This document shows, piece after piece, positions 1,380 through 34,638 of a stretch of 63,445 bases of DNA. Each line of letters opens with the position of its first letter. The stretch's first letter is position 1. The stretch covers positions 1 through 63,445 of the forward strand of contig CAZZBU010000006.1 of assembly GCA_964652315.1 (NCBI GenBank). The letters run 5' to 3'. The DNA comes from an uncultured Bacteroidales bacterium (GTDB lineage Bacteria > Bacteroidota > Bacteroidia > Bacteroidales > JAAAOM01). Below the pieces are notes generated by a model. That model searched no databases. It saw only the letters and a program-made list of their open reading frames with translations, and had not been told where the DNA came from. The position numbers and the translations under genes are program-made.

Positions 1380-2729
1380 ATGAAAAATGTAGCACTTGAT
1401 ATTTCGAAAGTGTATGATTTTGTCAGTAAAGATAAGGTTTATGCTTATGCTAATGATGTTACCAGATATCAGGAAGCCCTTGAATCAAAGACTGGAAAAG
1501 GCAGTGATTTTTTGGGTTGGTTGCACCTTCCATCCTCGATCTCAGATCAAATAATCACTGATATTGAAACAACCGCTAAATCACTTCAGGAGAAAGTAGA
1601 TGTTGTTGTAGTTATAGGCATTGGTGGTTCGTATCTTGGTGCCAAGTCGGTTATTGAAGCTATGTCGCATAGCTTTTCGCATTTGATACCACCCAACGGT
1701 ACCCCTCATGTATTTTTTGCCGGACAAAATATTGGAGAAGACTATTTGGCTGAAATGCTTGAGGTATTGGGAAATAAAAAATATGGCATTATCGTTATCT
1801 CAAAATCAGGTACTACTACTGAACCTGCTATTGCATTTCGCATTCTTAAGGATCATCTCGAAAGTAAAGTTGGCCCCGAAACTGCTAAAGAATTAATCGT
1901 GGCCATAACTGATGCCAATAAAGGAGCCTTACGGACCCTGGCTGATCAGAAAGGGTATAAAACTTTCTCAATTCCTGATGATGTGGGCGGGCGGTTTTCA
2001 GTGCTTACCCCAGTAGGTTTATTGCCAATAGCTGTGTCCGGATTTAGCATTCGGAAGTTCATCAACGGAGCAGTCTCCATGGAAAAGATAACCGGCAAAA
2101 ACACCCCCTTTGAAGAAAATCCGGCTGCACTATACGCTGCCGCCAGAAATGCATTATACGAAACCGGAAAAAAAATTGAAATCCTTGCCAACTATAATCC
2201 AAAGCTTTCATACATTGCCGAATGGTGGAAACAACTATACGGCGAAAGCGAAGGTAAGGAAGGTAAAGGCATTTATCCGGCAAGCGTTAATCTTACGGCT
2301 GATCTACATTCCATGGGACAGTATATTCAGGAAGGTGAACGCCTGCTCATGGAGACAGTCATTTCTGTTGAAAATCCTGATAAGGAGTTACATGTGCCCT
2401 CGGATGAAGATAACCTGGACAAGCTCAATTATCTCGCAGGTAAAAACATTGACTATGTAAATAAAATGGCCGAGCTTGGTACCATGCTGGCCCATGTGGA
2501 TGGTGGAGTACCAAATATTAAGATAAGCATGCCGGAAATTAATGAATTCTACATTGGGCAGTTGATTTACTTCTTTGAACGGGCATGTGCCATAAGTGGG
2601 TATATTCTGGGAGTTAACCCCTTTGATCAGCCTGGTGTAGAAGCTTATAAGAAAAATATGTTTGCCTTGCTGGAAAAACCAGGATTTGAAGACGAAACAA
2701 AAAAAATCAAAAATAAGCTAAACGCTTAA
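1380..2729 (+). CDS. pgi: Glucose-6-phosphate isomerase
   Basis: [35 protein letters not shown] and [12 protein letters not shown] motifs. Confidence 0.97.
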
Positions 2730-3728: not shown

Positions 3729-5153
3729 TTAACGCATGGTGTATATTCTGCCTGCATCCAATCGCAGGAAAATAAACAACAATGCTGTAAACGACCAAAG
3801 AGAGCTTCCTCCATAGCTAAAGAAAGGTAATGGAATGCCTATAACCGGGAACAACCCGATAGTCATTCCGATATTAATAAGAATGTGAAACAGGAATATG
3901 GATAATACTCCGTAGCCAAAAACACGGTTGAAGGTTGATTTTTGTCTTTCAGCAAGGTAAATTAATCGCAGGAGAAACAACATAAACAACAATATCACCA
4001 GGGAAGTGCCCATAAATCCCCATTCTTCACCCACGGTACAGAAGATAAAGTCCGTACTTTGTTCCGGTACAAATTTATATTTTGTCTGCGTTCCCTGTAA
4101 AAACCCTTTACCACTGAACCCTCCGGAGCCAATGGCAATTTTTGACTGCCGTACATTATAACCCGCTCCTTGTGGATCTTCTTCAATCCCTAACAACACG
4201 TTAATACGCATTTGTTGATGAGGCTCCAGCACTTTGTTAAATACCACATCAACTGAATAAGTGATGCCCAATGACACCACAAATAAACCAAGAATTAAGA
4301 GCCCGTGCCTGATTTTTTTTCGAAGGGAAAGAATAAAAAAGACCAATAAAGCCAGGGCTAAAGTAATCATTAAAATTATATAGGCTGAATAGCCAGCATT
4401 TAGCTTGGTATTTAAATATTTGGCTCCAAAGAAAAATGCTGCAAAGAATAAGCCGGCAAGGATGATTTGGGTATAACGTTTGTTTGTAACTGCAAGAATC
4501 AAAACCGCTCCAACAATAAGAATCAGGGTTACGGTAAAACTATCCAGGACCAAAGCCAGAATAGACAATATGGCAAGGTAAATTCCCACAATGGGTATAA
4601 CCGGAGACATTCCTTCGCGAAAGAGGACAACTATAAAAGCAAAATAAATAAGTACCGAACCCATATCAGGCTGAAGTGCGATTAACATGGCCGGCAGTGC
4701 AATAATCACCAGCATACGGAAAAACCATTCTCTTTTATACAGCTTAAAGTTGTAAGTACTCATTAAACGGGCCAGGGCCAGTGCAGTGGCAATTTTTGCG
4801 AATTCAGACGGTTGAATCTGTACGCTGCCAAAGGAAAACCAGGATTTTGCTCCGTTAATTTCTTTGCCAATGATTAAAACCAGGATAAGGCTCAGAATGA
4901 AAAATGCGTAGATAACATAAGCAAAAAATGAATAAAACTTTTCATCAATAATTAGCATAATTACGGCAATCGCTATAGCTGCTGTAATCCAGATAAGTTG
5001 TTTACCGTAGCGCTGGCTAACATCCAGGATGCTTTGATGCTCAACGTTGTATACTGCTGCATAAATATTTAACCATCCCAGGAAAACCAATACCAAGTAA
5101 AGCCCTACGGTTAACCAGTCAATATGTGCTAATATGTTACCTCGTTTTATCAA
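3729..5153 (-). CDS. rodA: Rod shape-determining protein RodA (SEDS family)
   Basis: IQPSEFAK, QPDMGS, GYNVRQSKIAIGSGG, PEQSTDFIF, SYGGSSL; directly downstream of mrdA. Confidence 0.95.
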   Translation of the reverse strand: MIKRGNILAHIDWLTVGLYLVLVFLGWLNIYAAVYNVEHQSILDVSQRYGKQLIWITAAIAIAVIMLIIDEKFYSFFAYVIYAFFILSLILVLIIGKEINGAKSWFSFGSVQIQPSEFAKIATALALARLMSTYNFKLYKREWFFRMLVIIALPAMLIALQPDMGSVLIYFAFIVVLFREGMSPVIPIVGIYLAILSILALVLDSFTVTLILIVGAVLILAVTNKRYTQIILAGLFFAAFFFGAKYLNTKLNAGYSAYIILMITLALALLVFFILSLRKKIRHGLLILGLFVVSLGITYSVDVVFNKVLEPHQQMRINVLLGIEEDPQGAGYNVRQSKIAIGSGGFSGKGFLQGTQTKYKFVPEQSTDFIFCTVGEEWGFMGTSLVILLFMLFLLRLIYLAERQKSTFNRVFGYGVLSIFLFHILINIGMTIGLFPVIGIPLPFFSYGGSSLWSFTALLFIFLRLDAGRIYTMR

Positions 5154-6965
5154 TTAATAGTCTATTGTGGCATTTAACATTAAATTTTCAACCCATTTCC
5201 TTGACACTGTGTCGGTCAGGTATTTTTCAATCATCAGACTGGCTATGGGTGCAGCATAAGTAGAACCCCACTTGCCATGTTCAACATAAACCGCTATCGC
5301 AATCTGCGGATTTTCCCTTGGAGCAAAAGCCGAAAATACCGAATGGTCTTCTCCATGTGGATTTTCAGCAGTTCCGGTTTTACCGCAAACAACAATATCA
5401 TTAATTTTTGCAATGCGTGAAGTGCTTCCTTCCCCTCCATTAACTGCCATTTCCATTCCATCCAAAACTACCGGAAAATGCGAAGAATCAATTGTAGTAA
5501 AATGGGGGGTTGTAAACTTCCGGCTAAGCGTATCAATCCCTTCGATTTTTTTAACTACATGAGGGGTGTAATAATACCCTTTGTTTGCCAGGGCTGCAGT
5601 CATATTAGCCAGTTGAAGCGGAGTAATGCCCAACTCTCCCTGCCCGATGGCCAGCGATATGATGGTGAGGGCTTTCCAGCGGCCTTCGCCATAATATCTG
5701 TCATAATAAGAGGTATTGGGTACATAACCGCTTAATTCATTTGGGAAGTCGCTACCCAATGGTCTGCCAAAGCCAAAAGAGAGAAGGTGATCACGCCAGT
5801 TGTTGAATGCCATAGGTACTGAAGGATAATCCCGGTCTTCGATGATGTTCCGGAAAATGTGACAGAAATAGGCATTGGATGATTTTTGAATGCCGCTTAC
5901 CATATCAACATACCCGTATACATGATCCTTCACTGTTACACCTCTGGCATAATAAGCCCCATCAACATAATATGTTGCTTTCGGATTTACCACGTTTTCC
6001 TGAAGGCCTATCAGGGCATTTATCATTTTAAAAGTAGAGCCGGGCGGATATTGCGCCATTAAAGCGCGGTTGAAAATCGGCTTTAGTGTATCGCTTTGCA
6101 GTTTTCGGTAGTTCTTGGTCCGTTCCCGGCCAACCAGAAGCGAGGGGTCATAATTTGGTGCTGTTACCATGGCCAGAATCTCTCCGGTTTGAGGTTCAAT
6201 AGCCACGATGCTGCCACGGAAGTCTTCCATCAGCTTTTCACCATAAGTCTGTAAGTCGGCATCAATCGTAAGGGTGAGGTTTTTCCCAACCACTGCCGGC
6301 TCATTATACCTGCCGCCTTCATATACTCCCTGCACCCTTCCGTGTACATCCACATTATAAATTTCACGTCCTTTTTCGCCGCGAAGGTATTCTTCATAGG
6401 TTTTTTCAATACCACTGATTCCAATATAGTCGCCCATGCTGTAATAATCATTTTCCTCTATGATTTTATCATCTACTTCACCTACATATCCGATGAGGTG
6501 GGCAGCAATGTCGCTCGAGTATTTTCGTAATGTCCTTGGTTGAACATAAAAGCCCGGAAAACGGTAAAGTTTTTCCTGAAGTTCGGCATAGGTTTCAGCA
6601 GACACCTGTTTGATAAACGGTTCTCTCCGGTAGCGCGGCATAAACGAGCGTTCGATGCCGTTAACCAGAAATTCCCTGTCGATATTTAAAATGGTACAAA
6701 GTTCGGCTGTATCAAATTCCTGCAATTGATAAGGAGCAATCACTAAATCATAGGCAGCCTGATTGTATACCAGCAATTCACCATCGCGGTCAAAAAATAA
6801 GCCGCGGGCCGGAAAAAGTGTAACCACCCGCCTGGAATTGTTTTCAGCTGAAAGGCGATAGGATTCATCGATCACCTGAAGGTAAAATAACTTCAGAATG
6901 AATACCAGGGCGATCATAATTACGATTCCTGCAATAGTATATTTTCTTACCGAGAATTGCTCCAT
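5154..6965 (-). CDS. mrdA: Penicillin-binding protein 2
   Basis: PPGSTFK (SxxK), SSN (SxN) and GKTGTAE (KTG); operon context. Confidence 0.95.
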   Translation of the reverse strand: MEQFSVRKYTIAGIVIMIALVFILKLFYLQVIDESYRLSAENNSRRVVTLFPARGLFFDRDGELLVYNQAAYDLVIAPYQLQEFDTAELCTILNIDREFLVNGIERSFMPRYRREPFIKQVSAETYAELQEKLYRFPGFYVQPRTLRKYSSDIAAHLIGYVGEVDDKIIEENDYYSMGDYIGISGIEKTYEEYLRGEKGREIYNVDVHGRVQGVYEGGRYNEPAVVGKNLTLTIDADLQTYGEKLMEDFRGSIVAIEPQTGEILAMVTAPNYDPSLLVGRERTKNYRKLQSDTLKPIFNRALMAQYPPGSTFKMINALIGLQENVVNPKATYYVDGAYYARGVTVKDHVYGYVDMVSGIQKSSNAYFCHIFRNIIEDRDYPSVPMAFNNWRDHLLSFGFGRPLGSDFPNELSGYVPNTSYYDRYYGEGRWKALTIISLAIGQGELGITPLQLANMTAALANKGYYYTPHVVKKIEGIDTLSRKFTTPHFTTIDSSHFPVVLDGMEMAVNGGEGSTSRIAKINDIVVCGKTGTAENPHGEDHSVFSAFAPRENPQIAIAVYVEHGKWGSTYAAPIASLMIEKYLTDTVSRKWVENLMLNATIDY

Positions 6966-9409: not shown

Positions 9410-10936
9410 TCAATGTTTAAAATGTCTGATACCTGTAGTTACCATTGCCAGTCCATGCTTATCACAATAATCGATAGACTCTTTATCGCGAATGGAACCT
9501 CCGGGCTGAATAACGGCTTTTATGCCTGCCTTGTCTGCAATTTCCACCACATCAGGGAAGGGAAAAAATGCATCGGAAGCCATAACTGCACCTTCCAAAT
9601 CAAAATCAAAAGACCGTGCCTTGTCAATAGCCTGACGGAGTGCATCCACACGCGAAGTCTGTCCAACACCGCTGGCACAGAGCTGTTTGTTTTTAGCCAG
9701 CACAATCGTATTCGATTTTGTATGTTTCACAACTTTATTAGCAAATTCAAGATCAATTATTTGTTCAGCAGTTGGAGATACCTTTGTTACGGTTTTCATG
9801 TCAGAAGGTTTCTCAATTTTTGTATCTCTGTCTTGAACAAGCACTCCGTTTAGCATTGAACGGAATTGCTGCATAGGAAATACGGTTTCTTTCTGAACTA
9901 GGATAATACGGTTTTTTTTCGTTTTTAGTATAGCCAAAGCAGAATCATTATAAGAAGGAGCAATGACCACTTCAAAAAACAGTTTATCCATCTCATTGGC
10001 AGTTTCTTCATCAATTTCACGGTTGGTTATGAGTATGCCGCCAAAAGCTGAAACAGGGTCACCTGCAAGAGCAGCTCTCCAGGCATCAACCAATACCTCG
10101 CGGCTGGCAATACCACATGCATTATTGTGCTTCATGATGGCCATGGTGGTTTCCCCGAACTCTGAAATGAGGTACACAGCAGCTTCAATATCAAGCAGGT
10201 TGTTATAGGAAATTTCTTTTCCGTGAAGCTGATCAAATACCGCTTCGAATTTTCCATAAAAAGTCCCATGCTGATGTGGGTTTTCACCGTAACGCAACAC
10301 TTTAGCCTCAAGGTTGCTTTGGCGAAAAGCTTTTATTTCATTTTCGTTGTTGAAATAATTGAAAATAGCTGTATCGTAATGCGATGAGACATTAAAAGCA
10401 TGAGCAGCAAAATATTTTCTTTGTTCAATGCTGGTCTGGCATTCCTGCTTTTCTATGATATCGGATAACTCCTTATATTGAGCCTGTGAAGGTACAATAA
10501 CCACATCGCTATAATTCTTTGCTGCTGCCCGGATCAATGAAATTCCACCGATATCAATTTTTTCAATGATGTCCTGATGTGTAGCTCCTGAACGAAGCGT
10601 ATCTTCGAAGGGATAAAGATCAACAATGATCAGGTCCAGGGAAGGAATCTCAAACTGTTGTACCTGTTCCATGTCTGTAGGATTATCGCGACGGGCCAGT
10701 ATTCCACCAAATATTTTCGGATGCAGGGTTTTTACTCTTCCTCCAAGAATAGAAGGGTACGTGGTAACATCTTCAACAGGTGTTACTTTGGCACCCAGGC
10801 TTTCGATGAAATCTTTGGTCCCTCCTGTAGAATAAATGCTGACATCATGCTGTGAGAGGGTTTCAACTATTTTTTCCAGATTGGTTTTGTGGTAAACAGA
10901 AATCAACGCAGATTTAATCTTTTTTAACTCACTCAT
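9410..10936 (-). CDS. purH: Bifunctional AICAR transformylase/IMP cyclohydrolase
   Basis: STGGT, GGRVKTLHP, IDIGGISLIRAAAKN, LRYGENPHQ, ASDAFFPF, RHFKH. Confidence 0.97.
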   Translation of the reverse strand: MSELKKIKSALISVYHKTNLEKIVETLSQHDVSIYSTGGTKDFIESLGAKVTPVEDVTTYPSILGGRVKTLHPKIFGGILARRDNPTDMEQVQQFEIPSLDLIIVDLYPFEDTLRSGATHQDIIEKIDIGGISLIRAAAKNYSDVVIVPSQAQYKELSDIIEKQECQTSIEQRKYFAAHAFNVSSHYDTAIFNYFNNENEIKAFRQSNLEAKVLRYGENPHQHGTFYGKFEAVFDQLHGKEISYNNLLDIEAAVYLISEFGETTMAIMKHNNACGIASREVLVDAWRAALAGDPVSAFGGILITNREIDEETANEMDKLFFEVVIAPSYNDSALAILKTKKNRIILVQKETVFPMQQFRSMLNGVLVQDRDTKIEKPSDMKTVTKVSPTAEQIIDLEFANKVVKHTKSNTIVLAKNKQLCASGVGQTSRVDALRQAIDKARSFDFDLEGAVMASDAFFPFPDVVEIADKAGIKAVIQPGGSIRDKESIDYCDKHGLAMVTTGIRHFKH

Positions 10937-16375: not shown

Positions 16376-16840
16376 TTAAATTTTCACGGGGTTTACCTGA
16401 TTGATATCACAGTTATGTGTAGTCTTATCAATGTTTGCGCCCATTTTTTTGTACAGATTTATGGCATTTTTGTTCCATGAAGATACCTGCCAACGCAGCC
16501 GCCGGCAATTTTCCCTTTGTGCTGTTTTTTTGATTTCTTCCAACAGGGCTGTCCCTATTCCGTTATTTCGGTATGCTTTCTTAACAACCAAATCATCCAG
16601 ATAGAGGGATTTACCTACCCAGGTATAATAAGCAACGAAATAAACAGCAATACCAATGATTTCCTTATTATCCTTTTCTGCTACAAGGCACTTAAAGAAT
16701 TCCTGCTCTTTTTTCATTTGCCGGGGAGAGTTTAATACATGGTTGGCAATTCCCTGAAAGTCAGCCAGTTCATGTATTAAACCCATAATATTTTCAAAAT
16801 CGGCTTCAACAGCCATCCGGATAATGTACTGCATTTTCAA
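16376..16840 (-). CDS. GNAT N-acetyltransferase (SSAT-like)
   Basis: YYTWVGKSLYLDDLVV, YRNNGIGTAL, WQVSSWN. Confidence 0.85.
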   Translation of the reverse strand: MKMQYIIRMAVEADFENIMGLIHELADFQGIANHVLNSPRQMKKEQEFFKCLVAEKDNKEIIGIAVYFVAYYTWVGKSLYLDDLVVKKAYRNNGIGTALLEEIKKTAQRENCRRLRWQVSSWNKNAINLYKKMGANIDKTTHNCDINQVNPVKI

Positions 16841-19751: not shown

Positions 19752-22382
19752 TTGAGATATATGTTTTTAAAAGATAAGATGATTAGAAGTGGATTGGTTG
19801 TGTTATTGATTTTTTCCACACTCAATATATCAGCGCACAAAGGTTTTGATAAGAATATTTCTCCTGAAACCAGGCTATTGTTTTCAATGAATGATACCGA
19901 GCAGGACGATGAGCAGCTTAAACAAGCTCAATATGAAAAGCTTATTAAACGAGGAGACAGCCTAATGAACATTGAAGAAAATGTGAAAGCCCTTCTTGAA
20001 TTTCAAAAAGCGGTTGAATTGATGCCGTATGAAGAGTATCCCCGCCTGAAAATTCAAGTAATAGAGACCTCCCTGGATTTAAAACAACGTGAAGAACTAC
20101 GAAAACTCGAAGAAGCCAGAAAAAAGGAGGAAGAAAAGGTTCTTGAACAACCAAAGGAACAACCGGATGAACAACCTGTAAGTGAACCGGAACCAGAGAA
20201 ACCCCAACCTGAAGTAAGGAAGGAAGATAAACCTGAACAAGCTGATGTGCAGGTTATACCACCTGATAAGCCTACCATTCAGTCTATTTTGGCTCAATAT
20301 GAAGACACTCTTAGTAAGCTTGATGATGTCAAACACAGGGTTGAGAAATCAATCCTTTATACAGAAATTGCCAGTGAACTGAAACAGGCAGGCTTTCATT
20401 CCAAAGCCATTGAATATTTTCAGAAATCATTGATGGTTCAGGAAGAGACCGGCGAAAACCCAGACCAGGTTGCCACCATTTATGATGGAATGGCCGAAGT
20501 ATACCTTGATTCGGGTGCTTTTGAAACATCCATTGAAACCCTTGAAAAATCTATGGCAATCAAAGAAGAATCAGGAGATACCAAAGGCGTCTCAGAAAAT
20601 CTGAACAAAATAGGCAACGTGTATGAAAACATATATGATTATACCAAAGCCATCGATTTTTATGAAAAATCTGCAGAGGTAAAAACCACCATTGATGATA
20701 AAGCCGGATTATCACAGGTAATGGATAATATGGGTAATCTTTACTACAAACAACAAATCCTTGAAAAATCCATTGAATCCTATGAACGTTCGGTAGCAAT
20801 AAATGAGCAACTGGATAATAAGGAAGTACTTGGTAAAACATATAACAAACTCGGAGTATCTCATTTCGAACTCGGACAGTATGATCAGGCTGAAGAATAT
20901 TATAAAAAATCGATTTCCAACGCCGAAGCTATCAATGAGAACCTTGTAAAATCAAGGGCTTTAAACAATCTTGGTAATTTGAATTTTATTCAAAACAGGT
21001 ATAACAAAGCCATTAATTATTATGAGAATGCTATTGCTATTAAATCAGAAATTGATGATCACAAGGGTCGGGCAATTTCATATTATAATATTGGCAATGC
21101 TTACAGGTTATCCAACCAACCGGACAAAGCCATTCCTTATTTTGAACAAAGCCGGGTACTGGCTGAGGAGCATGAAGAAGAGGATCTCCTGGCAAGAAAC
21201 TTACAGGTACTTGCTCAATTATATCACGAAGAAAACAATCCTGAAAAAGCCAGCGAATTTGAAGCACTGGCACAGCAGATTGGCAATCCATCCGTGGATA
21301 TTGATGATAATATTGCCGAGGGTGAGATGACAATTGCCGCAGTGTCGGAGGATCAGGATATGATAACTATGCTAACCGAGGAAATTATCCGTCAAAAACA
21401 TCTGGTAGAAGCCGAAGCTGAGCGCCGGGCAAAAGAAAACAAAATAAACAGGCTGAAACTGGAATCCCAAAACGAGCAGATTAAAAGACAACGAATATTT
21501 CTTGCCTCCCTTACCATTGTTATTGTTTTGGTATTGGTTGTGACACTCTTACTTCGAATGCAAATTCTTCAGAAGAAAAAAGCCAATAAGGAATTACGGG
21601 AAAAGAATGAGCTTATCTCCACACAGAAAAGACTTATCACCGATAATATCCTTTCAGCAAGAGTCATTCAAAAAGCGGCCATGCCACCCGAAGATTATGT
21701 CAAAGCAGAGTTGCCCGAACATTTTATTCTTAACATGCCCAAAGACATTGTAAGTGGCGATTTTTACTGGCTCGAAAAACGCGATGGAGCCTTGTTCGTT
21801 GCCGTTGCAGATTGCACCGGTCACGGAGTACAGGGTGCTGTAGTAAGCATGTTGGGAATTGCAGCTCTGAACGAAATTGTTAATAAAAGCTTTGATTCCC
21901 GGCCAAGTGATATCCTGAACCAGTTGAGTGAAAGAATAAAAACCACCCTGCACAGTGAAAATGGGGAATCAGCAGCCCGGGAAGGCATGGACATGGCTTT
22001 ACTTAAAATCAATAAAGACGGGCAGGAAATAGAATTTTCCGGCGCCAAAAATCCGCTTTACCTGGTGCGCGATGGAGAAGTTATTGTGTATAAAGGCAAC
22101 CGTTCTCCTATTGGCTATTACACCAAGGACATTCCTTTTACCACACAAAAAATAAAAACCCGGAAAGGCGATTCATTGTACATATTCTCCGATGGATATA
22201 TTGACCAGTTGGGTGGCAAAGAACTCAAAAAGTTCATGGCCCGCCGGTTTCAAAAAATTCTCGTTGATATTAATGATAAACCCATGGAAACACGCCGTGA
22301 AATCCTTGTAGAAAAATTCAATAAATGGAAGGGTGAATACGCCCAGGTTGATGATATTATGGTTATGGGCATCTCCTTGTAG
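19752..22382 (+). CDS. TPR-repeat membrane sensor with SpoIIE/PP2C phosphatase domain
   Basis: Signal-like N-terminus, P/E-rich linker, multiple TPRs, one TM, then VSGDFYW, ADCTGHG, SDGYIDQ and QVDDI. Confidence 0.87.
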   Translation: MRYMFLKDKMIRSGLVVLLIFSTLNISAHKGFDKNISPETRLLFSMNDTEQDDEQLKQAQYEKLIKRGDSLMNIEENVKALLEFQKAVELMPYEEYPRLKIQVIETSLDLKQREELRKLEEARKKEEEKVLEQPKEQPDEQPVSEPEPEKPQPEVRKEDKPEQADVQVIPPDKPTIQSILAQYEDTLSKLDDVKHRVEKSILYTEIASELKQAGFHSKAIEYFQKSLMVQEETGENPDQVATIYDGMAEVYLDSGAFETSIETLEKSMAIKEESGDTKGVSENLNKIGNVYENIYDYTKAIDFYEKSAEVKTTIDDKAGLSQVMDNMGNLYYKQQILEKSIESYERSVAINEQLDNKEVLGKTYNKLGVSHFELGQYDQAEEYYKKSISNAEAINENLVKSRALNNLGNLNFIQNRYNKAINYYENAIAIKSEIDDHKGRAISYYNIGNAYRLSNQPDKAIPYFEQSRVLAEEHEEEDLLARNLQVLAQLYHEENNPEKASEFEALAQQIGNPSVDIDDNIAEGEMTIAAVSEDQDMITMLTEEIIRQKHLVEAEAERRAKENKINRLKLESQNEQIKRQRIFLASLTIVIVLVLVVTLLLRMQILQKKKANKELREKNELISTQKRLITDNILSARVIQKAAMPPEDYVKAELPEHFILNMPKDIVSGDFYWLEKRDGALFVAVADCTGHGVQGAVVSMLGIAALNEIVNKSFDSRPSDILNQLSERIKTTLHSENGESAAREGMDMALLKINKDGQEIEFSGAKNPLYLVRDGEVIVYKGNRSPIGYYTKDIPFTTQKIKTRKGDSLYIFSDGYIDQLGGKELKKFMARRFQKILVDINDKPMETRREILVEKFNKWKGEYAQVDDIMVMGISL

Positions 22383-24395: not shown

Positions 24396-25772
24396 TTATT
24401 TCATTACAACATTAGCAATATCACTTGTGAGTGGACGATCATCCATAAGACTACTGTCGTCCGGTCCCTTCTTGATTTTTTTATCCAGCAGGTAAATAAA
24501 CAATGTAAACAGCAAGGCGTAAATGGACGTGAACAATATCAGTGAAAACCATACCTGATTGGCCCTGACTGACTCTGACAGTGCATCAGAGGTGCGCAGC
24601 AAACCATAGACTACCCAGGGCTGGCGGCCCATTTCAGCTGCATACCATCCCAGTTGATTGGCAATTTGTGGCAATAAAACAGCAAAAATAAAAACCACCA
24701 TCAGCCATTTTTTGGTGAACAAGCTGCGCCGCCACATCAAAAATGTAGCATAAACAGTGATGGCTATGAGGATAAGGCCGATAAAAACCATAAAATGGTA
24801 AAATTGAAATACAGCATTAACAGCAGATGGCCTGTCTTCCTCAGGAAAGGCATTTAACCCTGTTACAGGAGTATTGAAATCGTAATCAACCAGAAAGGAA
24901 AGCCCCCCCGGAATCTTTATGCCGGTAACTTTTTGTTCTTCTTTATCAACCCATCCCATGATATACATGTCGGCCGGGGCCGATGCTTCAAAATGGCCTT
25001 CAAATGCGGCTAACTTGGCCGGTTGGGTTTCTACCAGTGTATCTGCTGAACTGTGACCGGACAATAATTGCAGAACTGCAAACACGGTTGCCACGGATAA
25101 AGCTATGCGAAAAGCTTTTTTCGAAAGCTCCACATGGCGGTTTTTATATAAATAATAGGCATGCACACTCAATACCAGGAATGCCCCGGCTAATAAAGCA
25201 CCCAGCCATACATGAAGTACACGATCGACTGATGAAGGATTGAAGACCATTGTCCAGAAATCGGTAATTTCAGCCCGGGCATTTAACCCTTCTCCAACAA
25301 TATGAAATCCTGCAGGAGTTTGTTGCCAGCTGTTTGCTACCACAATCCAGATAGCTGAAAACATAGACCCCAGGAATACTCCAATAGTTGCTATCAGATG
25401 CACAGCCGGTTTCAGCCGGTTCCAGCCAAAGAGCAATACCCCCAGAAAACCGCTTTCGAGGGCAAAGGCAAAGATGCCCTCAGCAGCCAGGGCGCTGCCA
25501 AAAATATCACCAACGTAACGTGAATATGCAGCCCAGTTGGTGCCAAATTGAAATTCCATTACAATGCCGGTGGCCACTCCAATACCAAATATAAGCGCAA
25601 AAATTTTGGTCCAAAACCTGGCTAATACCTCGTATTCTTTGTTTTTGGTGCGTACATACAGGCTTTCCATAATAACCATGATTAGTCCCAAACCTATACT
25701 AAGTGGGGGAAAAATGTAATGAAAAGCAATAGTGAATGCAAATTGAATCCGTGCCAGTATTTCAACGTCCAT
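24396..25772 (-). CDS. cydA: Cytochrome bd ubiquinol oxidase subunit I
   Basis: ARIQFAFTIAFHYIF, GVATGIVMEFQFGTNW, QPAKLAAFEG, AEMGRQPWVV. Confidence 0.96.
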   Translation of the reverse strand: MDVEILARIQFAFTIAFHYIFPPLSIGLGLIMVIMESLYVRTKNKEYEVLARFWTKIFALIFGIGVATGIVMEFQFGTNWAAYSRYVGDIFGSALAAEGIFAFALESGFLGVLLFGWNRLKPAVHLIATIGVFLGSMFSAIWIVVANSWQQTPAGFHIVGEGLNARAEITDFWTMVFNPSSVDRVLHVWLGALLAGAFLVLSVHAYYLYKNRHVELSKKAFRIALSVATVFAVLQLLSGHSSADTLVETQPAKLAAFEGHFEASAPADMYIMGWVDKEEQKVTGIKIPGGLSFLVDYDFNTPVTGLNAFPEEDRPSAVNAVFQFYHFMVFIGLILIAITVYATFLMWRRSLFTKKWLMVVFIFAVLLPQIANQLGWYAAEMGRQPWVVYGLLRTSDALSESVRANQVWFSLILFTSIYALLFTLFIYLLDKKIKKGPDDSSLMDDRPLTSDIANVVMK

Positions 25773-25849
25773 GATTTGAAATTTCGGTTATGAGTAATTA
25801 GAATTCCTTAAAACATGAAAGTATATTTATAGATAAATTCATGTTATGT

Positions 25850-25857
25850 CAAAAATA
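25850..25857 (-). promoter_or_regulatory. sigmaA -7 element for cydAB
   Basis: TATTTTTG on the minus strand about 78 nt upstream of the cydA ATG. Confidence 0.4.
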
Positions 25858-26049
25858 GTAAATCTGGCGAAAAAAAATTACGGGGTTGGTTATTTTAAAT
25901 AAAACCAAATAGCATTAACACAAGTGTCATGTCATTTTTACTTTTGCGGTTAAACCACAGTCAAGGTTTTCAATTATTGTCAGTGTATGCCCCGTCAATG
26001 GTCAACGACTATGATGGTGGCTAAGCGACATTAGAGTCTTGACACGACA

Positions 26050-26421
26050 CTAGTATTTCTCCAAAACACTGGATAATAGTTCTTTATCAATCTCCTCTTT
26101 AATGATGTATGATCTGGCACCTGCTTCAATCATCTGAATAACATATTTCATATCTGAATGAAAGGACAGGGCGATAATGATTAAATTCCGGTAGGTTTCA
26201 GAGGCAATTTTGGTGGTTTCAATGCCATTCATAACAGGCATGTCAATATCCATAAATACAATGTCTATGACTTTTTTTGAGAGAATATCCAGGCATTCTT
26301 TTCCATTGCAGGCGGTATCGATGCTTTCAACGGTTTCATCAAAAGTATCGGTGATTAAAAATTTCAAGGCACTTAAAAATTGTACATGATCATCTACAAG
26401 TAATATTCGCAATTTTTTCAC
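26050..26421 (-). CDS. Stand-alone response regulator receiver (NarL-like REC)
   Basis: LVDDH, DIVFMDIDMPVMNG, SYIIKE; GTG start; no output domain. Confidence 0.88.
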   Translation of the reverse strand: MKKLRILLVDDHVQFLSALKFLITDTFDETVESIDTACNGKECLDILSKKVIDIVFMDIDMPVMNGIETTKIASETYRNLIIIALSFHSDMKYVIQMIEAGARSYIIKEEIDKELLSSVLEKY

Positions 26422-26537
26422 TATGGCAGGGTTTATGGTAAAATTTAAATCATCATAAATTTAATCATTGTTGTGTAATGAATCAAAGCAAACATCTCAA
26501 AATCACTCATAAAATAATTCTTTTTATAGTGATTAAT

Positions 26538-26545
26538 CAAATGTA
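26538..26545 (-). promoter_or_regulatory. sigmaA -7 element upstream of the receiver gene
   Basis: TACATTTG on the minus strand, downstream of the terminator at 26649-26683. Confidence 0.4.
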
Positions 26546-26648
26546 CGATATGCAAAAAAGAAATGGTTGAGAAGATATACGCATATTGCGATGTACTGTC
26601 ACGAATGTGTTAGTGGGTATTTACCGTCATTTTTAAAAAAAAGCATAC

Positions 26649-26683
26649 AAAAACAGGGTAACGGACAGGCGTCCGTCACCCTG
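26649..26683 (-). terminator. Intrinsic terminator
   Basis: CAGGGTGACGGAC-GCCT-GTCCGTTACCCTG 13-bp stem (one G.U pair) followed by TTTTTG on the minus strand. Confidence 0.85.
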
Positions 26684-26750
26684 CAAACCAAACCACACTA
26701 AAACAACCCTAAATCAAACCTATTAAGTAAACTTAAATATCGAAAAAATG
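26649..26750 (-). ncRNA. Candidate sRNA with GGUUUG repeats ending in a strong terminator
   Basis: Three GGTTTG and one GGGTTG within 26684-26720 on the minus strand; no ORF; own terminator. Confidence 0.5.
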
Positions 26751-26784
26751 TTCAAAAATTTTCTGATATTTTTTATTTTTTTTC

Positions 26785-26832
26785 AAAAAAAGAGGTTTCT
26801 TCTGGAGAGGATTGTCATCTACCCGAAACCTC
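26785..26832 (-). terminator. Intrinsic terminator (switchable)
   Basis: GAGGTTTC...GAAACCTC stem followed by T7 on the minus strand. Confidence 0.7.
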
Positions 26833-27024
26833 ATCAATGTTTTACAGATTAAACTCAACATCTTTTCCTACCACACAAAATCCGTTAATCTGTAAAAGTC
26901 AAATCCCCTCATAAACTAAAACCACGCATTAAATCATTTCAGACATTTATTTTCCCCGCCTAGAAGAAACCTTTTTGTGTTTACAAAATAATTTTGTATA
27001 CTTTCTATCAATTCAAATAACCTG
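26785..27024 (-). ncRNA. Candidate structured RNA/attenuator with two alternative folds
   Basis: TATATTTG -7 element at 27028-27035; helices 26962-72/26793-803 (11 bp), 26902-10/26805-13 (9 bp) and 26885-97/26840-52 (13 bp); terminator at the 3' end. Confidence 0.5.
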
Positions 27025-27181
27025 ATACAAATATACGGGGTAAAATGCCTTGTTTCTTGAGCACTACCACGCAAAATTAGTAAATTTTTACTCAAAATAA
27101 AATGTGTAGAAATAATTAATCATTACGTATCAGATTTTGGGTGTTTTCCGACATGAGGTTGAGTTTATAATATCCAGTTAA

Positions 27182-27817
27182 TCAAACGGATACAAGATTG
27201 TTTTTGATAGCATATACAACCAGGCTAATGGAATTGTTACTTTCTGTTTTCATCAGCAGATTGGATCGGTGGCGTTCTACCGTCCGTTGTGAAATATGCA
27301 GCTCATCCGAAATCTGACTGTTCGAATATCCTTTGCAAATCAGGGCTAGAATTTCCTGTTCGCGCCTTGTTAAAGTAACATTTTGATTTTCTGATTTATG
27401 CTTTATCAGGCTTAGCAATAATTCCTGTGAAAAATATGTGCCCCCTCTGAGAATGTAGCGAATGCCGTTTTTTAATTCTTCGTTATCAGCGTCTTTTAGA
27501 ATAAACCCTTTTACTCCAAGTTCAATCATGGTATTGTAATATGCATCTTCGCCAAACATTGACAGGACAAGGATGTTTAAATCAGGTTTTTTTTCGAGTG
27601 CAATGCGGGTAGCCTCCACCCCATTCATTACAGGCATGCTGATGTCCATCAGAACCAAATCAGGGTGTATGACTTCAAGCAATTCCAGGAATTCTTTTCC
27701 GTTTGATGCTTCAGCCACAACCTCAATATTTTCCATTTCATTGATTATGAATTTCAGCCCGTTACGAAACAGGTTATGATCATCCACAATGACAATTTTA
27801 TGGTTTTCTTTTTCCAT
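27182..27817 (-). CDS. NarL/LuxR-family response regulator
   Basis: VDDHNLFR, DLVLMDISMP, GFILKD, LTRREQEIL...TVERHRSNL HTH. ATG at 27817 preferred over TTG at 27835. Confidence 0.95.
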   Translation of the reverse strand: MEKENHKIVIVDDHNLFRNGLKFIINEMENIEVVAEASNGKEFLELLEVIHPDLVLMDISMPVMNGVEATRIALEKKPDLNILVLSMFGEDAYYNTMIELGVKGFILKDADNEELKNGIRYILRGGTYFSQELLLSLIKHKSENQNVTLTRREQEILALICKGYSNSQISDELHISQRTVERHRSNLLMKTESNNSISLVVYAIKNNLVSV

Positions 27818-27856
27818 ATTATAAAGATAATTCAACTTTTTTGAACCCCCAAATTG

Positions 27857-30800
27857 TTATTCTTCTGACAGCGGAACTGCCGGAGCTTCAATTTCTATTA
27901 AAATGCCCTTCTCCGGGTGTTTAAATGCAAAATTCCCGTTTAATGATTTAATCCGGCTCATGAGATTAAACAATCCCATGCCTTTTTTCTCCACTGCTTC
28001 GAAATCAAATCCTATGCCATTATCCCTGTAGGTAAGGTATAGGTTAGCGCCATCGTACTCAAGGTTTATTTTTATTTCACTGGCATTCGCATGTTTCAGG
28101 GTATTGTTTATGAGTTCTTTAATAATTCGATAGAAGGTTGTTTCCAGCATGTTGTTGAACCGCGTGTCGGCGATGCTGGTATTAAAATCTATCGATATGT
28201 GGTGGGTAAGTTTTTCAATAAAATTATCAATGGCCGATACAATGCCATAATTTGTTAGAATATGCGGACTCAGATCGTTTGAGATTTGTTTTGTGGTTTG
28301 AATGGCTTCCCGTAATATTTCGTTAACCTGCTCGATAATATATTTTTGTTTTTCAGGATTATCGGTATCAACAAATGAATTCATATACATCCGGATGCTG
28401 GATAATAGCGGACCAAGATCATCATGCAGGTTTTTTGCAAAGTTTTCGCGTTCTTTTTCCTCGGTTTTGATGATTGCATCCAACACTTTATGCTCTGTTA
28501 ATTTGCGAAGAGTAATGTCCCTGATTATGGTTAAGATAGCTTTTTTATCTTCATAATTTATGGATTTGCTGTGAAATTCAACAGGACGGTGATGATGTTC
28601 ATCCTTTTTATAGTCAAGTTCAAGGGCAGGAGCAGTGCCTTTTTTTTCAACCTCACTAAAATGTTTTTCAATTTCTTCCTGCTGGTGTTTTTCAAAAAAT
28701 GAATAAATGGAACTTCCGATAATGTCTTTTCGGCTACAATTGAGATATTCCAATAGCCGGTGATTTGCCTCGAAACAAAAGCCTTGAACATCAGATATAA
28801 GAATAGCATCGCTGCTGTTATTAAAAATATTCCGGAATTTTCTTTCGTTTTCAAGAATGGTTTTTTCAGCCTTTTCGCGTTCGGATATGTCTCTGATGGC
28901 TGTAACCCTGGCCTGTTTTCCTTCATAAGGGATATTTCGTGCAAGGACTTCAACCGGAAAAGTTGTTCCATCCTTTCTGCGGGCAAGATGTACATAAGGG
29001 CCCTTAAAGCCTTCCTTTATGGCTTTTTTCACCATATCTTGTGACTCGGGCGCTACCATTTCAATGGCATTTTTACCGATTATCTCATCAACATCGTAAC
29101 CCAACATCCAGGCAATTTGAGAATTCACTGTCAGTATTTTTCCGTCAATTGAGATAACAATTCCTTCAAAAGCTGATTCAGCGAGATTTCTGAAACGTTC
29201 TTCACTTTCTTTTAATGCTTTTTCAGCCTGCTTCCGCTCGGAGATATCTTTTACTGTTCCTTTTATGCTGGTAAGGTTACCCTTTGAATCAAATTCTCCC
29301 CGGCCGATATTTTCCAGGTAAAGCACTTTACCTGCTTGGGTCAGAATCCGGTAATCAAATTTTACAATGTCTTTTGAAACTTGATGTAGTTGAAGTTTTT
29401 CCCGCACAAGAGACTGATCATCGGGGTAAACGATTTTTTTTATGAATTTTTCCAGTCCGATGGGATTTGCGTAGGTTCCATCGCCAAGAATATTAAAGAA
29501 TTCATCTGACCAGTGGATCACATTTTGATGAATATCAATCCACCAGTTGCTTAGTTTAGCAAGTTTTTGTGCCTCTTTGAGGTTTCTCTCGCTCTGTTTT
29601 AGCGCTTTTTCAGATTTTTTACGTTCGGTGATATCGAAAATTGCACCGATTAGGCCAATGATGTTTTCTTCAGCATCAGTATAGGCCGCTTTATGATATA
29701 TCACATCGCGGATCGAACCATCGGCGTACTGAAGTGAGGCCTCCTCTATCCGGTTGCCACCAAATTCTATTAACTGAAGGTCGGATTGAATATCTTTTTC
29801 AAAATCTGTATTTGGAAACAAATCGCGCACAGTTTTTCCATGAATATCCCCCCGTTTGAATCCGGTTGAAGCTTCAAATGCAGAGTTACAACCTACAAAT
29901 TCAGTGTTCACATTTTTGTAATAAACAGGTATAGGGATGGTTTCGAGCAGGGTCATCAGAAAGTCGCGGTGCTCTTTTTCTCTGCGTTCGGCTTTTTTTC
30001 TTTCAGATATGTCACGAACAATGGCCTGAATAAAGATCTCATTATTAAAAATAAGGGAGTTGAGTACAACTTCGGCATCAAAGGGTTTGCCTGATTTGGT
30101 AATATGCTGCCATTCAAATGAATGTGTATTGCCTTGCAAACTGGATTTGATATATTCCACGGCCTTTGTTTTGGATTTTTCACCATTGGGTTGAGTATCC
30201 GGTGAAAAATCAAAGGGTGTTTTACCTATAATATCTTCATAACTGCAATTAAAAATTTCAAGGGTTTTTTTATTGCAACTGATAAATTTATCTTTTTTCA
30301 TCAGGAAAATAGCGTCGTTGGCGTTTTCAAATACAAGCCGGTATTTCTTTTCACTGTCAATCAGGGCCTGTTCGTTCTCTTTCAGTTCGGTGATATCGGT
30401 AATAACCCCTATGGATTTTACCGGAGAGGTATTTTCATCACGTTCAAAGATTTGCTCGCGAATCAATACCCAAAATACCTGATTGTTTTTACCGACCAGA
30501 CGAATCTCGTTTGTTATGATCTGATTTCCTTTTGCTTTCAGTAATTTTTCCTGGTGCTGCTGGCATATAAGCTTGTCTTTATGGAAAACCAACAGGTCTA
30601 TCACATTATTGGCTTTTTCCAGTTCTTTATCTGTGTATCCGGTTAACTCAGTCAGGCGGTTATTGAAAAAGTTGAACCGGTTGGATTCGAGGTCCAGCAC
30701 AAAAATAACATCAGGCGTGGCATTGTTAATGGCTTCCAGAAAGCTGTTTGACCTGACCAGCTCCTGTTCAAATTCTTTTTTATCGGTAATATCCCGGCCA

Positions 30801-34040: not shown

Positions 34041-34415
34041 CTAGAGCACATCAGCATACTCAATAAAACGAAACTCTATTGTTGGCAGCAGGGATTTATA
34101 GTACTGACCTGAATCGAGCATGTCCTCATCATCTTCGGCATAATACCAGTTTGCCCGCACCTTTTTAATTAAAGGGTTTTCAGTCAAAGTTTTAAACAGA
34201 ATATACATTTGTTTGGTTGACGATGTGTTTAGGTACTCCACTTTTATGTCCAGTACCACTTCTACCACTTCCAACTTTCTGGCATAATCAAATAACGGTT
34301 GATAAAATTTCAGGGAGTCTTCGGGTAAGGAAACACCTTCAATTAAAAAATAACCATTTTGGGTGATTTTAATGAAAGGCGTTGTTTTTGTGCCTTGAAT
34401 TAATATTTCCTGCAT
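34041..34415 (-). CDS. SiaC-family (DUF1987) regulatory phosphoprotein
   Basis: GTKTTPFI, IEGVSLPED, EYLNTSSTK, WYYAEDDEDMLDSG. Start at MQEILI (34415). Confidence 0.85.
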   Translation of the reverse strand: MQEILIQGTKTTPFIKITQNGYFLIEGVSLPEDSLKFYQPLFDYARKLEVVEVVLDIKVEYLNTSSTKQMYILFKTLTENPLIKKVRANWYYAEDDEDMLDSGQYYKSLLPTIEFRFIEYADVL

Positions 34416-34638
34416 GAGTTGAGGTTTAATGACTTGTACAAATATAATCAGGCACGGTTGAACAACCAAACTTTTTTAAAAAAAAATGATATGATACATA
34501 ATAAATTTATTTCGTGTTATTTTGTTAATCAAATTGAATGACTTTATTTCAAAGTCAGAGATAAAGTTTCAGACTATTGTCCAGAAACGAAATTCAAAGG
34601 CTTACGTTAAAAAAAGACTTTATTAATAACATGATTGT

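Follow-up and report, generated by a model that had tools for sequence, protein, structure and literature searches.

A candidate small RNA family with a G/U-rich strand and a covarying terminator at a two-component locus of uncultured Bacteroidales

RNA-based regulation in the Bacteroidota is, to our knowledge, described almost only from Bacteroides thetaiotaomicron, and we know of no Hfq, ProQ or CsrA in the phylum. The closest described systems are the FopS and GibS small RNAs, which repress, in the case of FopS, susC-type mRNAs at the start codon. These RNAs consist of a conserved, single-stranded 5' seed and a Rho-independent terminator, are about 65-70 nt long and occur as several paralogues (PMC11697453). 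The single-stranded 5' part of the FopS RNAs is bound by the protein RbpB (PMC11697453). RbpB of B. thetaiotaomicron also binds a 3x GUAGGAUA probe with a KD of 5.1 uM, and CsrA is reported to be absent from Bacteroidetes (10.1101/2021.04.27.441718). FopS and GibS promoters are of the sigma-ABfr type, with the canonical -7 consensus TAnnTTTG (PMC7366714).

We analysed a 63,445-nt stretch of an uncultured Bacteroidales genome (contig CAZZBU010000006.1), hereafter the window. Its minus strand carries a SiaC-like gene (34469-34041), a gene for a 1967-aa kinase with receiver, multiple PAS and HisKA_3 domains (33760-27857), a NarL/LuxR-type response regulator gene (27835-27182), a 760-nt gap, a gene for a 123-aa stand-alone receiver (26421-26050; REC only, Pfam Response_reg, 1.3e-23) and, beyond it, cydAB. 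The gap between the NarL-type regulator and the receiver gene holds a terminator-ended unit. On balance, we favour the reading that this unit forms the functional 3' part of a small non-coding RNA whose family is undescribed and which would act in trans in the manner of GibS and FopS, by pairing that an RRM-type protein assists.

Anatomy and conservation of the unit

Read on the minus strand, the unit spans 26722-26649 and consists of TAGGTTTG, ATTTAGGGTTGTTTTAGTGTGGTTTGGTTTG, a 13-14-bp hairpin and T5. The first-pass annotation had described it as GGUUUG repeats followed by a GC-rich hairpin and T5, and reading of the sequence confirms this layout. The A/T-rich stretch with CATTTTTTCGATA that it called the head (26750-26738) is not conserved in relatives. 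The first of the supposed repeats, TAGGTTTG (26722-26715), matches TAnnTTTG perfectly, as a -7 box of the sigma-ABfr type. Next comes the G/U-rich strand ATTTAGGGTTGTTTTAGTGTGGTTTGGTTTG (26714-26684), which opens with ATTTAG (26714-26709) and contains TAGGGTTG (26711-26704), GTGTGGTTTGGTTTG (26698-26684) and a 24-nt conserved core, GGTTGTTTTAGTGTGGTTTGGTTT (26708-26685). Core and ATTTAG together form a C-free G/U-rich strand that is unpaired in the predicted fold, with no C in 41 nt; across the units, these strands contain 0-1 C in 31-54 nt. Because the strand is C-free, it can fold on itself only by weak pairs.

The hairpin is made of the 5' arm CAGGGTGACGGAC (26683-26671), the loop GCCT and the 3' arm GTCCGTTACCCTG (26666-26654). 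It has 13 pairs, including one G-U, or 14 if G26684-U26653 is counted, and with this outermost pair it extends over 26684-26653. Eight of the 14 pairs are G-C, the loop is 4 nt and TTTTTGTATGC follows. The T5 (U5) tract at 26653-26649 is the predicted RNA 3' end; GUAUGC and U8 come next. The G+C-rich stem, short loop and U tract are those of an intrinsic (Rho-independent) terminator, and a consensus terminator scan of 25500-28500 reports this hairpin as the only terminator-like site. Compared with shuffled sequences, the fold is unusually stable (z = -4.66 for 121 nt and z = -4.75 for 70 nt), in keeping with the strong terminator first proposed. In the 70-nt fold (26714-26645), 30 unpaired nucleotides precede the 14-bp hairpin and the U tract. 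The annotation had also placed a first terminator upstream of this one. That hairpin, T1 (GAGGTTTC, a 25-nt loop, GAAACCTC and T7; 26832-26785, minus strand), is weak, goes unreported by the scan and is specific to the window, with no counterpart in the related genomes G001 and G002; in their gaps, the unit hairpin is the only terminator.

The absence of protein-coding capacity stands as well, since the ORFs touching the unit are short and unconserved, with at most 42 aa. A toxin or antisense ORF on the opposite strand was rejected, as the plus-strand ATG at 26748 (34 aa, MFKNFLIFF...) has no corresponding frame in G001 or G002. A 63-aa frame at the paralogous locus C42 (MKNLFKIIFF...) resembles this 34-aa plus-strand frame; in the other units such frames have only 2-21 aa.

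GGTTTG is not enriched over the whole window (43 found, 46.6 expected), and by a rough Poisson estimate the three copies within 36 nt would make a borderline cluster. Such a local cluster alone is weak evidence, and the actual support comes from conservation. A BLAST search of the 760-nt gap against 41 relatives returned one well-conserved piece, 46 nt long and 96% identical in two other genera, which coincides with the G/U strand; the remainder of the gap is not kept. Two paralogues in the unit's own genome were also recovered, and nhmmer finds exactly three copies there, on contigs C6 (the window), C42 and C60. Homologous loci share the same 24-nt core, GGTTGTTTTAGTGTGGTT(T)GGTTT, followed by a hairpin of differing sequence and a T run. 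The core is identical at C60 and at G001:C1, and differs by 2-3 letters at C42, G002:C62 and G002:C348. It is not the GGUUUG repeats that are conserved: within the family it is this contiguous 24-nt block and, across families, UAGGGUU together with GGUU(U)GG. Although the cores of the two families are otherwise different, 10 of 12 units have UAGGGUU, and UAGG occurs one to three times in every unit.

A pattern search of the order (301 genomes) confined the core to one family, in three of its four genera, and a covariance model found it in all four, with two tandem copies in G003. Two or more copies are also present in G001 and G002. Outside the family, the exact core was absent among 301 to 401 genomes of the order, and an exact-pattern scan of 185,579 species genomes returned only two already known MAGs, both named 'Bacteroidales bacterium'. 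For orientation, the order includes at least 148 families, and the title Bacteroidales of the related MAGs matches GTDB Bacteroidales. A single metagenome contig that matched the core pattern was discarded as a chance match; it carries a tRNA and an argininosuccinate-lyase-like gene, with no terminator behind the match. All homologues come from MAGs, and the whole argument rests on about a dozen sequences.

In contrast to the core, the hairpin varies in sequence while keeping its pairing. MAFFT with RNAalifold failed on the variable hairpins, and a covariance model was made from four sequences and used for re-alignment; E-values of the home-made models are rough. Among eight family members, in an alignment that is fitted to the model and in which the hairpins are nonetheless plain by eye, standard pairs occupy all 87 cells of an 11-bp helix, and nine of the 11 pairs are changed on both sides. 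Shuffled and slid controls scored far lower. Judging from the sequences, the base of the stem, CAGGR...YCCUG, is kept. The suggestion that the segment is an RNA unit in its own right thus gains a conserved single-stranded block, a covarying terminator, multiple copies and, as described below, a free-standing copy with a -7 box, while its transcription and both RNA ends are predicted.

The unit also belongs to a wider class. A unit of parallel layout had been noticed at the left edge of the window, and contig C199, which overlaps the window's first 55 nt, completes it with four UAGGU, then GAAAGCACCC-TACC-GGGTGCTTTC, then a T run. Of 1681 terminator-like hairpins in this genome, 14, the left-edge unit among them, are preceded within 45 nt by at least six words of the UUAG/UAGG/GGUU type. 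With reverse-complement, reversed or complement word sets, 0-1 windows reach a score of 6, and 15 of 21,692 random intergenic 45-mers reach it. The window unit ranks first by G+T content (0.88). For most of the 14, the nearest ORF is 200-550 nt away; several of the units start with UUUCAUAG, as FopS does. At least 14 further units of this genome lie between genes, are rich in G/U and UAG and end in a terminator, some of them after a UUUCAUAG start, which suggests that the class is widespread.

Promoters, the upstream motif and the receiver gene

We counted 13 units in two families, and in nine cases an orthologous receiver gene follows 80-230 nt downstream. Besides the window, receiver orthologues or paralogues lie downstream of the unit at C42, in G001 (two loci), G002 (two loci), G155, G010 and G372; in the window, at C42, in G001 and at both G002 loci, the gene is a receiver-only paralogue of 122-129 aa on the same strand. 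Further units were sought upstream of receiver orthologues, located by a protein search of the order. In a second family, f8, the sister unit consists of UAGGGUUUGGUUGGAUUUAGGU and a hairpin and shows no difference over 22 nt among three genera (G155, G010 and G372); its own -7 box lies 65-100 nt upstream and a TGnCGG motif further up. The unit ahead of the second receiver copy in G001 is shorter, G101 and G014 have weaker versions, and the unit is missing ahead of the receiver gene of G179, G042, G074 and G231. In G003, the NarL-type gene precedes the RNA, and the receiver gene is found elsewhere, on another contig. The copy at C60 is flanked by a divergent panB gene and by dnaK, and TATATTTG stands 4 nt ahead of its core. 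This adjoining box and the location make C60 a free-standing unit of promoter, core and terminator. Two other copies (C42 and G002:C348, type B) have no -7 box adjoining the core, and there the unit can therefore be only the end of a longer RNA.

Promoter calls were made as matches to the sigma-ABfr consensus. In the window, a putative promoter P1 has its -7 box, TATATTTG, at 27035-27028 on the minus strand, kept as TATATTTGTATCAG or TATTTTTG in G001, G002 and G101. In copies of the window's kind (type A), this regulated promoter lies about 375 nt upstream of the terminator. The receiver gene has a presumed promoter of its own, with the -7 box TACATTTG at 26545-26538 (minus strand) and equivalents in G001 and G372. 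A third box is the one at the head of the unit. TA(G/A)GTTTG is kept at the same spacing in the type A loci of G001 and G002:C62, exactly 6 nt before the conserved block; type A conservation begins at this -7 box, and the sequence just upstream diverges. A perfect -7 box placed 6 nt ahead of the conserved RNA block, TAGGTTTG probably belongs to a promoter and is not part of the RNA, contrary to the repeat reading. With this fixed spacing and the box at C60, both a short form (about 62-65 nt) and a long form of the RNA are to be expected. In f8 and at C42, 65-125 nt separate the regulated -7 box from the G/U strand behind it, and the RNAs there would be about 115-150 nt long, judging by these distances.

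Upstream of these boxes lies a DNA motif, TGnCGG-N6-AC, at roughly 65-115 nt, with exact motif-to-box spacings measured for the window only. The window has one copy, TGTCGGAAAACAC, a presumed regulator site, at 27153-27141 (minus strand), 106 nt upstream of the P1 -7 box, and a second, TGACGGTAAATAC, at 26629-26617 (minus strand), just past the unit terminator, with the receiver box following 72 nt downstream. In the window, at C42 and in G372, RNA and receiver promoters alike have the motif upstream; in G010 and G155 it precedes the promoter of the RNA, and in G001 that of the receiver gene. In G155, at both G001 loci and elsewhere, it lies directly behind the unit terminator. In G372 it forms a perfect palindrome, TGGCGGTTTTTAC-N13-GTAAAAACCGCCA, and before the receiver genes of G179, G042 and G074 it stands in reverse orientation. 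A motif that is palindromic in one genome and oppositely oriented in other families is therefore a DNA site. As a genome-wide regular expression TGnCGG is too loose, with 56 matches against 62 for the reversed control, and it is meaningful only as intergenic matches at RNA and receiver promoters. At loci where both promoters can be seen, RNA and receiver gene thus form separate units that are probably co-regulated.

Proposed mode of action and its alternatives

We propose the following model. The RNA module would consist of the C-free, unpaired G/U-rich strand AUUUAGGGUUGUUUUAGUGUGGUUUGGUUUG and, directly behind it, the strong intrinsic terminator. A short transcript of about 62-65 nt would start from the TAGGTTTG -7 box at 26722-26715. 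A long one of about 375 nt would start from the regulated promoter at 27035-27028, read through the weak hairpin at 26832-26785 and end at the same terminator. In this locus, the order is PAS hybrid kinase, NarL-type regulator, RNA and stand-alone receiver. Since the RNA and receiver promoters carry the same motif, both are probably switched by one DNA-binding regulator, and the adjacent NarL-type protein would be the obvious candidate to bind it. Acting in trans, the accessible G/U strand may pair with C/A-rich stretches of mRNAs, as do the GibS and FopS RNAs of Bacteroides, probably with help from one of the two RRM_1 RNA-binding proteins that the genome encodes (C98:14166-14378 and C262:1048-1257). 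Paralogues whose flanks are unrelated still keep the whole 24-nt block, as one would sooner expect of a pairing seed.

Three target searches were negative. RNAduplex energies of the strand against 3323 start regions were no better than those of reversed or shuffled seeds, exact complementary words of at least 10 nt were not in excess and were fewer than in controls, and no enrichment of complementary words was found in the 5' regions upstream of start codons. These searches are crude: start positions were guesses based on ORFs, and a G/U strand of any kind is promiscuous because of G-U pairing.

An unlikely alternative, though the one that fares best among those considered, is that the unit is a cis-acting leader of the receiver gene. 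The receiver transcript would then start upstream of the G/U strand, the hairpin would serve as an attenuator or insulator, a factor on the strand would choose between termination and read-through, and the short RNA would be a by-product. The unit is indeed co-oriented with the orthologous receiver gene at the nine linked loci in two families, and at G002:C62 only 83 nt separate the terminator from the receiver start codon, with no TAnnTTTG box between them; the lack of a visible separate promoter at this locus fits a leader better. Judging from the sequences, UAGGGU of the strand could also pair with ACCCUG of the 3' arm as a weak alternative structure, and the stem base is kept. However, past the terminator a separate motif and -7 box precede the receiver gene in the window, G001 and G372, the C60 copy lies before dnaK instead of a receiver gene, and RNA and receiver gene are split between contigs in G003. 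Folding predicts no stable antiterminator, the strand being unpaired and the 13-14-bp hairpin dominating, and since the stems are variable, there is no conserved strand-to-stem alternative beyond about 6 bp. Rfam cis-regulatory families gave no match in the whole window at gathering scores or in the gap at E<=10.

It is also conceivable, at a rather low probability, that the RNA titrates or recruits a protein. Its UAGG(G/U) and GGUU words, about 11 nt apart, would bind an RRM-type protein related to RbpB, and the kinase and regulator pair would drive the RNA as GacS and GacA drive RsmY and RsmZ. The recurrence of UAGGGUU in most units of two families with otherwise differing cores is consistent with this, as are the two RRM_1 proteins of the genome, the three negative searches for pairing targets, and the conserved DNA motif upstream of the RNA promoters near a NarL-type regulator gene. 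So is the binding of RbpB to the 3x GUAGGAUA probe and to the 5' part of FopS, whose consensus has GAUUUAAGGUUAA where the unit has GAUUUAGGGUUGU. The eukaryotic hnRNP A1 prefers UAGGG, which offers a lead. On the other hand, the 24-nt block is kept with its spacers, even in paralogues, and so resembles a pairing seed more than a motif array; there are two to three motifs per RNA against many in known sponges; and the affinity of RbpB for such motifs is merely micromolar, its counterpart here being only a candidate. The trans-acting, pairing RNA remains our preferred reading of the unit.

Very improbable, finally, is a purely DNA-level element, in which TAGnnTnG words spaced by 11 bp would be overlapping -7 boxes or regulator sites and the hairpin an ordinary terminator of upstream transcription: TAGGTTTG is a perfect TAnnTTTG box, G/U-rich words often mimic the box (for example TAGTTTTG at C42) and the 11-nt repeat period is close to one helical turn, but the association with terminators is strand-specific in this genome (14 windows for the sense words), TAGGGTTG and TAGTGTGG are not -7 boxes, the core is fixed directly before a covarying hairpin in every copy, and the C60 copy has no upstream co-oriented gene that needs termination.

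Comparison with known systems

Like attenuators built on intrinsic terminators, the locus combines a promoter, a short untranslated RNA, a strong terminator and a co-oriented gene. It differs from them in that no conserved antiterminator pairing is predicted for the unit, the downstream gene mostly has a putative promoter of its own and one copy is unlinked to the receiver gene.

A second comparison is with RsmY, RsmZ and CsrB under GacS-GacA (BarA-UvrY). Here, too, two-component genes lie beside putative sRNAs in which short G-rich words recur; the RNA exists in several copies, and its promoter is preceded by a conserved DNA motif. The words themselves are different, however: UAGG and GGUU on an open strand instead of GGA in hairpin loops, with two to three per RNA where Csr/Rsm sponges have many GGA in loops. 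Because CsrA is reported absent from Bacteroidetes, an Rsm-like partner would have to be an RRM protein. We can therefore only speculate about a Bacteroidota counterpart of Gac/Rsm, in which the PAS-rich kinase and NarL-type regulator would, via TGnCGG-N6-AC, induce sRNAs that capture RRM proteins, with the receiver as a feedback phosphate sink; we consider this doubtful. If it were true, RRM-type proteins would be the phylum's stand-in for CsrA or Hfq in a Gac/Rsm-like circuit.

The closest resemblance is to FopS and GibS. Rfam has no family for the unit, whether the whole window is searched at gathering scores, the gap at E<=10 or eleven related loci at E<=1; weak snoRNA and PK-HAV matches were set aside as chance in A/T-rich sequence. 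Membership in FopS itself (RF04319, BTncRNA_FopS; gathering score 56 bits) was rejected, as its covariance model has no match at E<=10 on 26000-27600. In the unit's own genome, the best match to the model reaches 21.9 bits and lies at other places, with none of the three copies listed, and seven related loci were likewise without a match at E<=1. The model does pick up a related unit from another family (G127), at 40.8 bits, which is below the cut-off. The unit is without the FopS/GibS R1 seed GUGUUUUUCAUGG, and the R1/R1' seed that FopS has at its very 5' end (consensus GUGUUUUUCAUgGUAUUAGAU) is missing; the longer C42 RNA contains UUUUUCAUAG. FopS has the consensus GUGUUUUUCAUgGUAUUAGAUUUAAGGUUAA..., followed by the terminator, and shares with the unit only GAUUUA(A/G)GGUU, which lies further 3'.

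In contrast to FopS, the strand is G/U-rich and C-free, the unit is linked with both a two-component locus and a stand-alone receiver gene, a regulated long form is predicted, and the unit is restricted to uncultured families other than Bacteroidaceae. As in FopS, a single-stranded conserved segment stands directly before a Rho-independent terminator, paralogues are multicopy (three in this genome, 14 in B. thetaiotaomicron) and, as for GibS too, the promoters are of the canonical TAnnTTTG type. Together with the wider class of G/U-rich units, this suggests that the FopS/GibS layout is widespread in the order and not a speciality of the Bacteroidaceae. Taken together, the sequence comparisons point to a real new sRNA family of a known kind. 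A seed-plus-terminator family in uncultured Bacteroidales, linked to a two-component system and sharing its promoter motif with a stand-alone receiver gene, would make it possible to test, on a concrete case, how small RNAs are connected to signal transduction beyond the gut model.

Related units at the contig edge and in a fourth genus

The left edge of the window carries a minus-strand unit (1-60) that continues onto contig C199 of the same genome. The end of C199 overlaps the first 55 nt of the window, and joining the two contigs gives the whole unit, which reads UAUAGGUAUAGGUUUAUUUAAUUAGGUAAUACUUAGGUU, then the hairpin GAAAGCACCC-TACC-GGGTGCTTTC, then GCTTTTTT. Its layout is that of the putative small-RNA unit at 26722-26649. 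In G003, a fourth genus, the counterpart of the 26722-26649 unit, GTGTGATTGCAGTTTAGGGTTGATnATTAAGGTTGGGTTTT with a hairpin, occurs as two copies in tandem on the plus strand (locus L113, contig C22, ~880-1070), placed after a gene for a NarL-type regulator. The first hairpin of the pair has no T run, and the stand-alone receiver gene of this genome lies on a different contig.

Promoter motif and neighboring genes

Several Bacteroidales families have a DNA motif, TGnCGG-N6-AC, upstream of RNA promoters and of stand-alone receiver genes, and it occurs in both orientations. The window has it on the minus strand at 27141-27153 and 26617-26629. In G372, of family f8, it forms a perfect palindrome, TGGCGGTTTTTAC-N13-GTAAAAACCGCCA (L115, contig C8, ~1405-1445, minus strand). 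A second element, TGnGTA-N6-CTCAA, lies between this motif and the -7 box. Taken together, the two elements look like the operator of some regulator.

Chaperone genes adjoin two family members. The C60 copy (L014, 1489-1568, plus strand) is 234 nt upstream of dnaK, and the short unit of G001 (L077, C1:1417161-1417226) immediately follows a groES-like gene and precedes a second receiver copy, raising the possibility of a stress link for these members. Both loci of the window's own genome that combine RNA and receiver have a SiaC/DUF1987-like gene, in the window upstream of a PAS kinase (34041-34469, minus strand) and in C42 directly upstream of the RNA (L012, 1990-2403, minus strand).

Opposite the RNA, short plus-strand ORFs of the window (26748-26852, 34 aa, MFKNFLIFFIFF...) and of L012 (1604-1795, 63 aa, MKNLFKIIFFRF...) have hydrophobic starts that are alike. 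Because no counterpart is present in G001 or G002, these ORFs have probably arisen by chance in a sequence rich in A and T.

Other small-RNA-like units

A second paralogous small-RNA-like family has four copies in this genome outside the window (C21:~9830-9900, plus; C21:~22000-22070, plus; C21:~30550-30480, minus; C50:~3830-3910, plus). All read (C)AGTTAGGGTTTAGTTGATAGTTGGTTGACAGGAA, followed by a terminator hairpin that differs from copy to copy. Separately, C163 carries a telomere-like repeat, CCAAAACCCCAAAACCCCAAAACCCCATAACCCTGTAACCC (~3985-4041, plus), which immediately precedes an asparagine-synthase-like ORF of 614 aa.

Intergenic units built from UUAG/UAGG/GGUU words and followed by a terminator occur at eight named sites of the genome: C21:~10060-10140, C7:~16440-16520, C175:~6020-6105, C129:~4880-4950 and C25:~26230-26300 on the plus strand, and C9:~37770-37690, C26:~14615-14530 and C205:~75-1 on the minus strand. 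Similar units are present in other families (G184:C68:23814-23880; G048:C3:25652-25718; G127:C196:24297-24360), and that of G127 matches the Rfam model of FopS, a Bacteroides sRNA family, at 40.8 bits, below the cut-off. Many of the own-genome units start with (U)UUCAUAG, which resembles the FopS seed, GUGUUUUUCAUGG.
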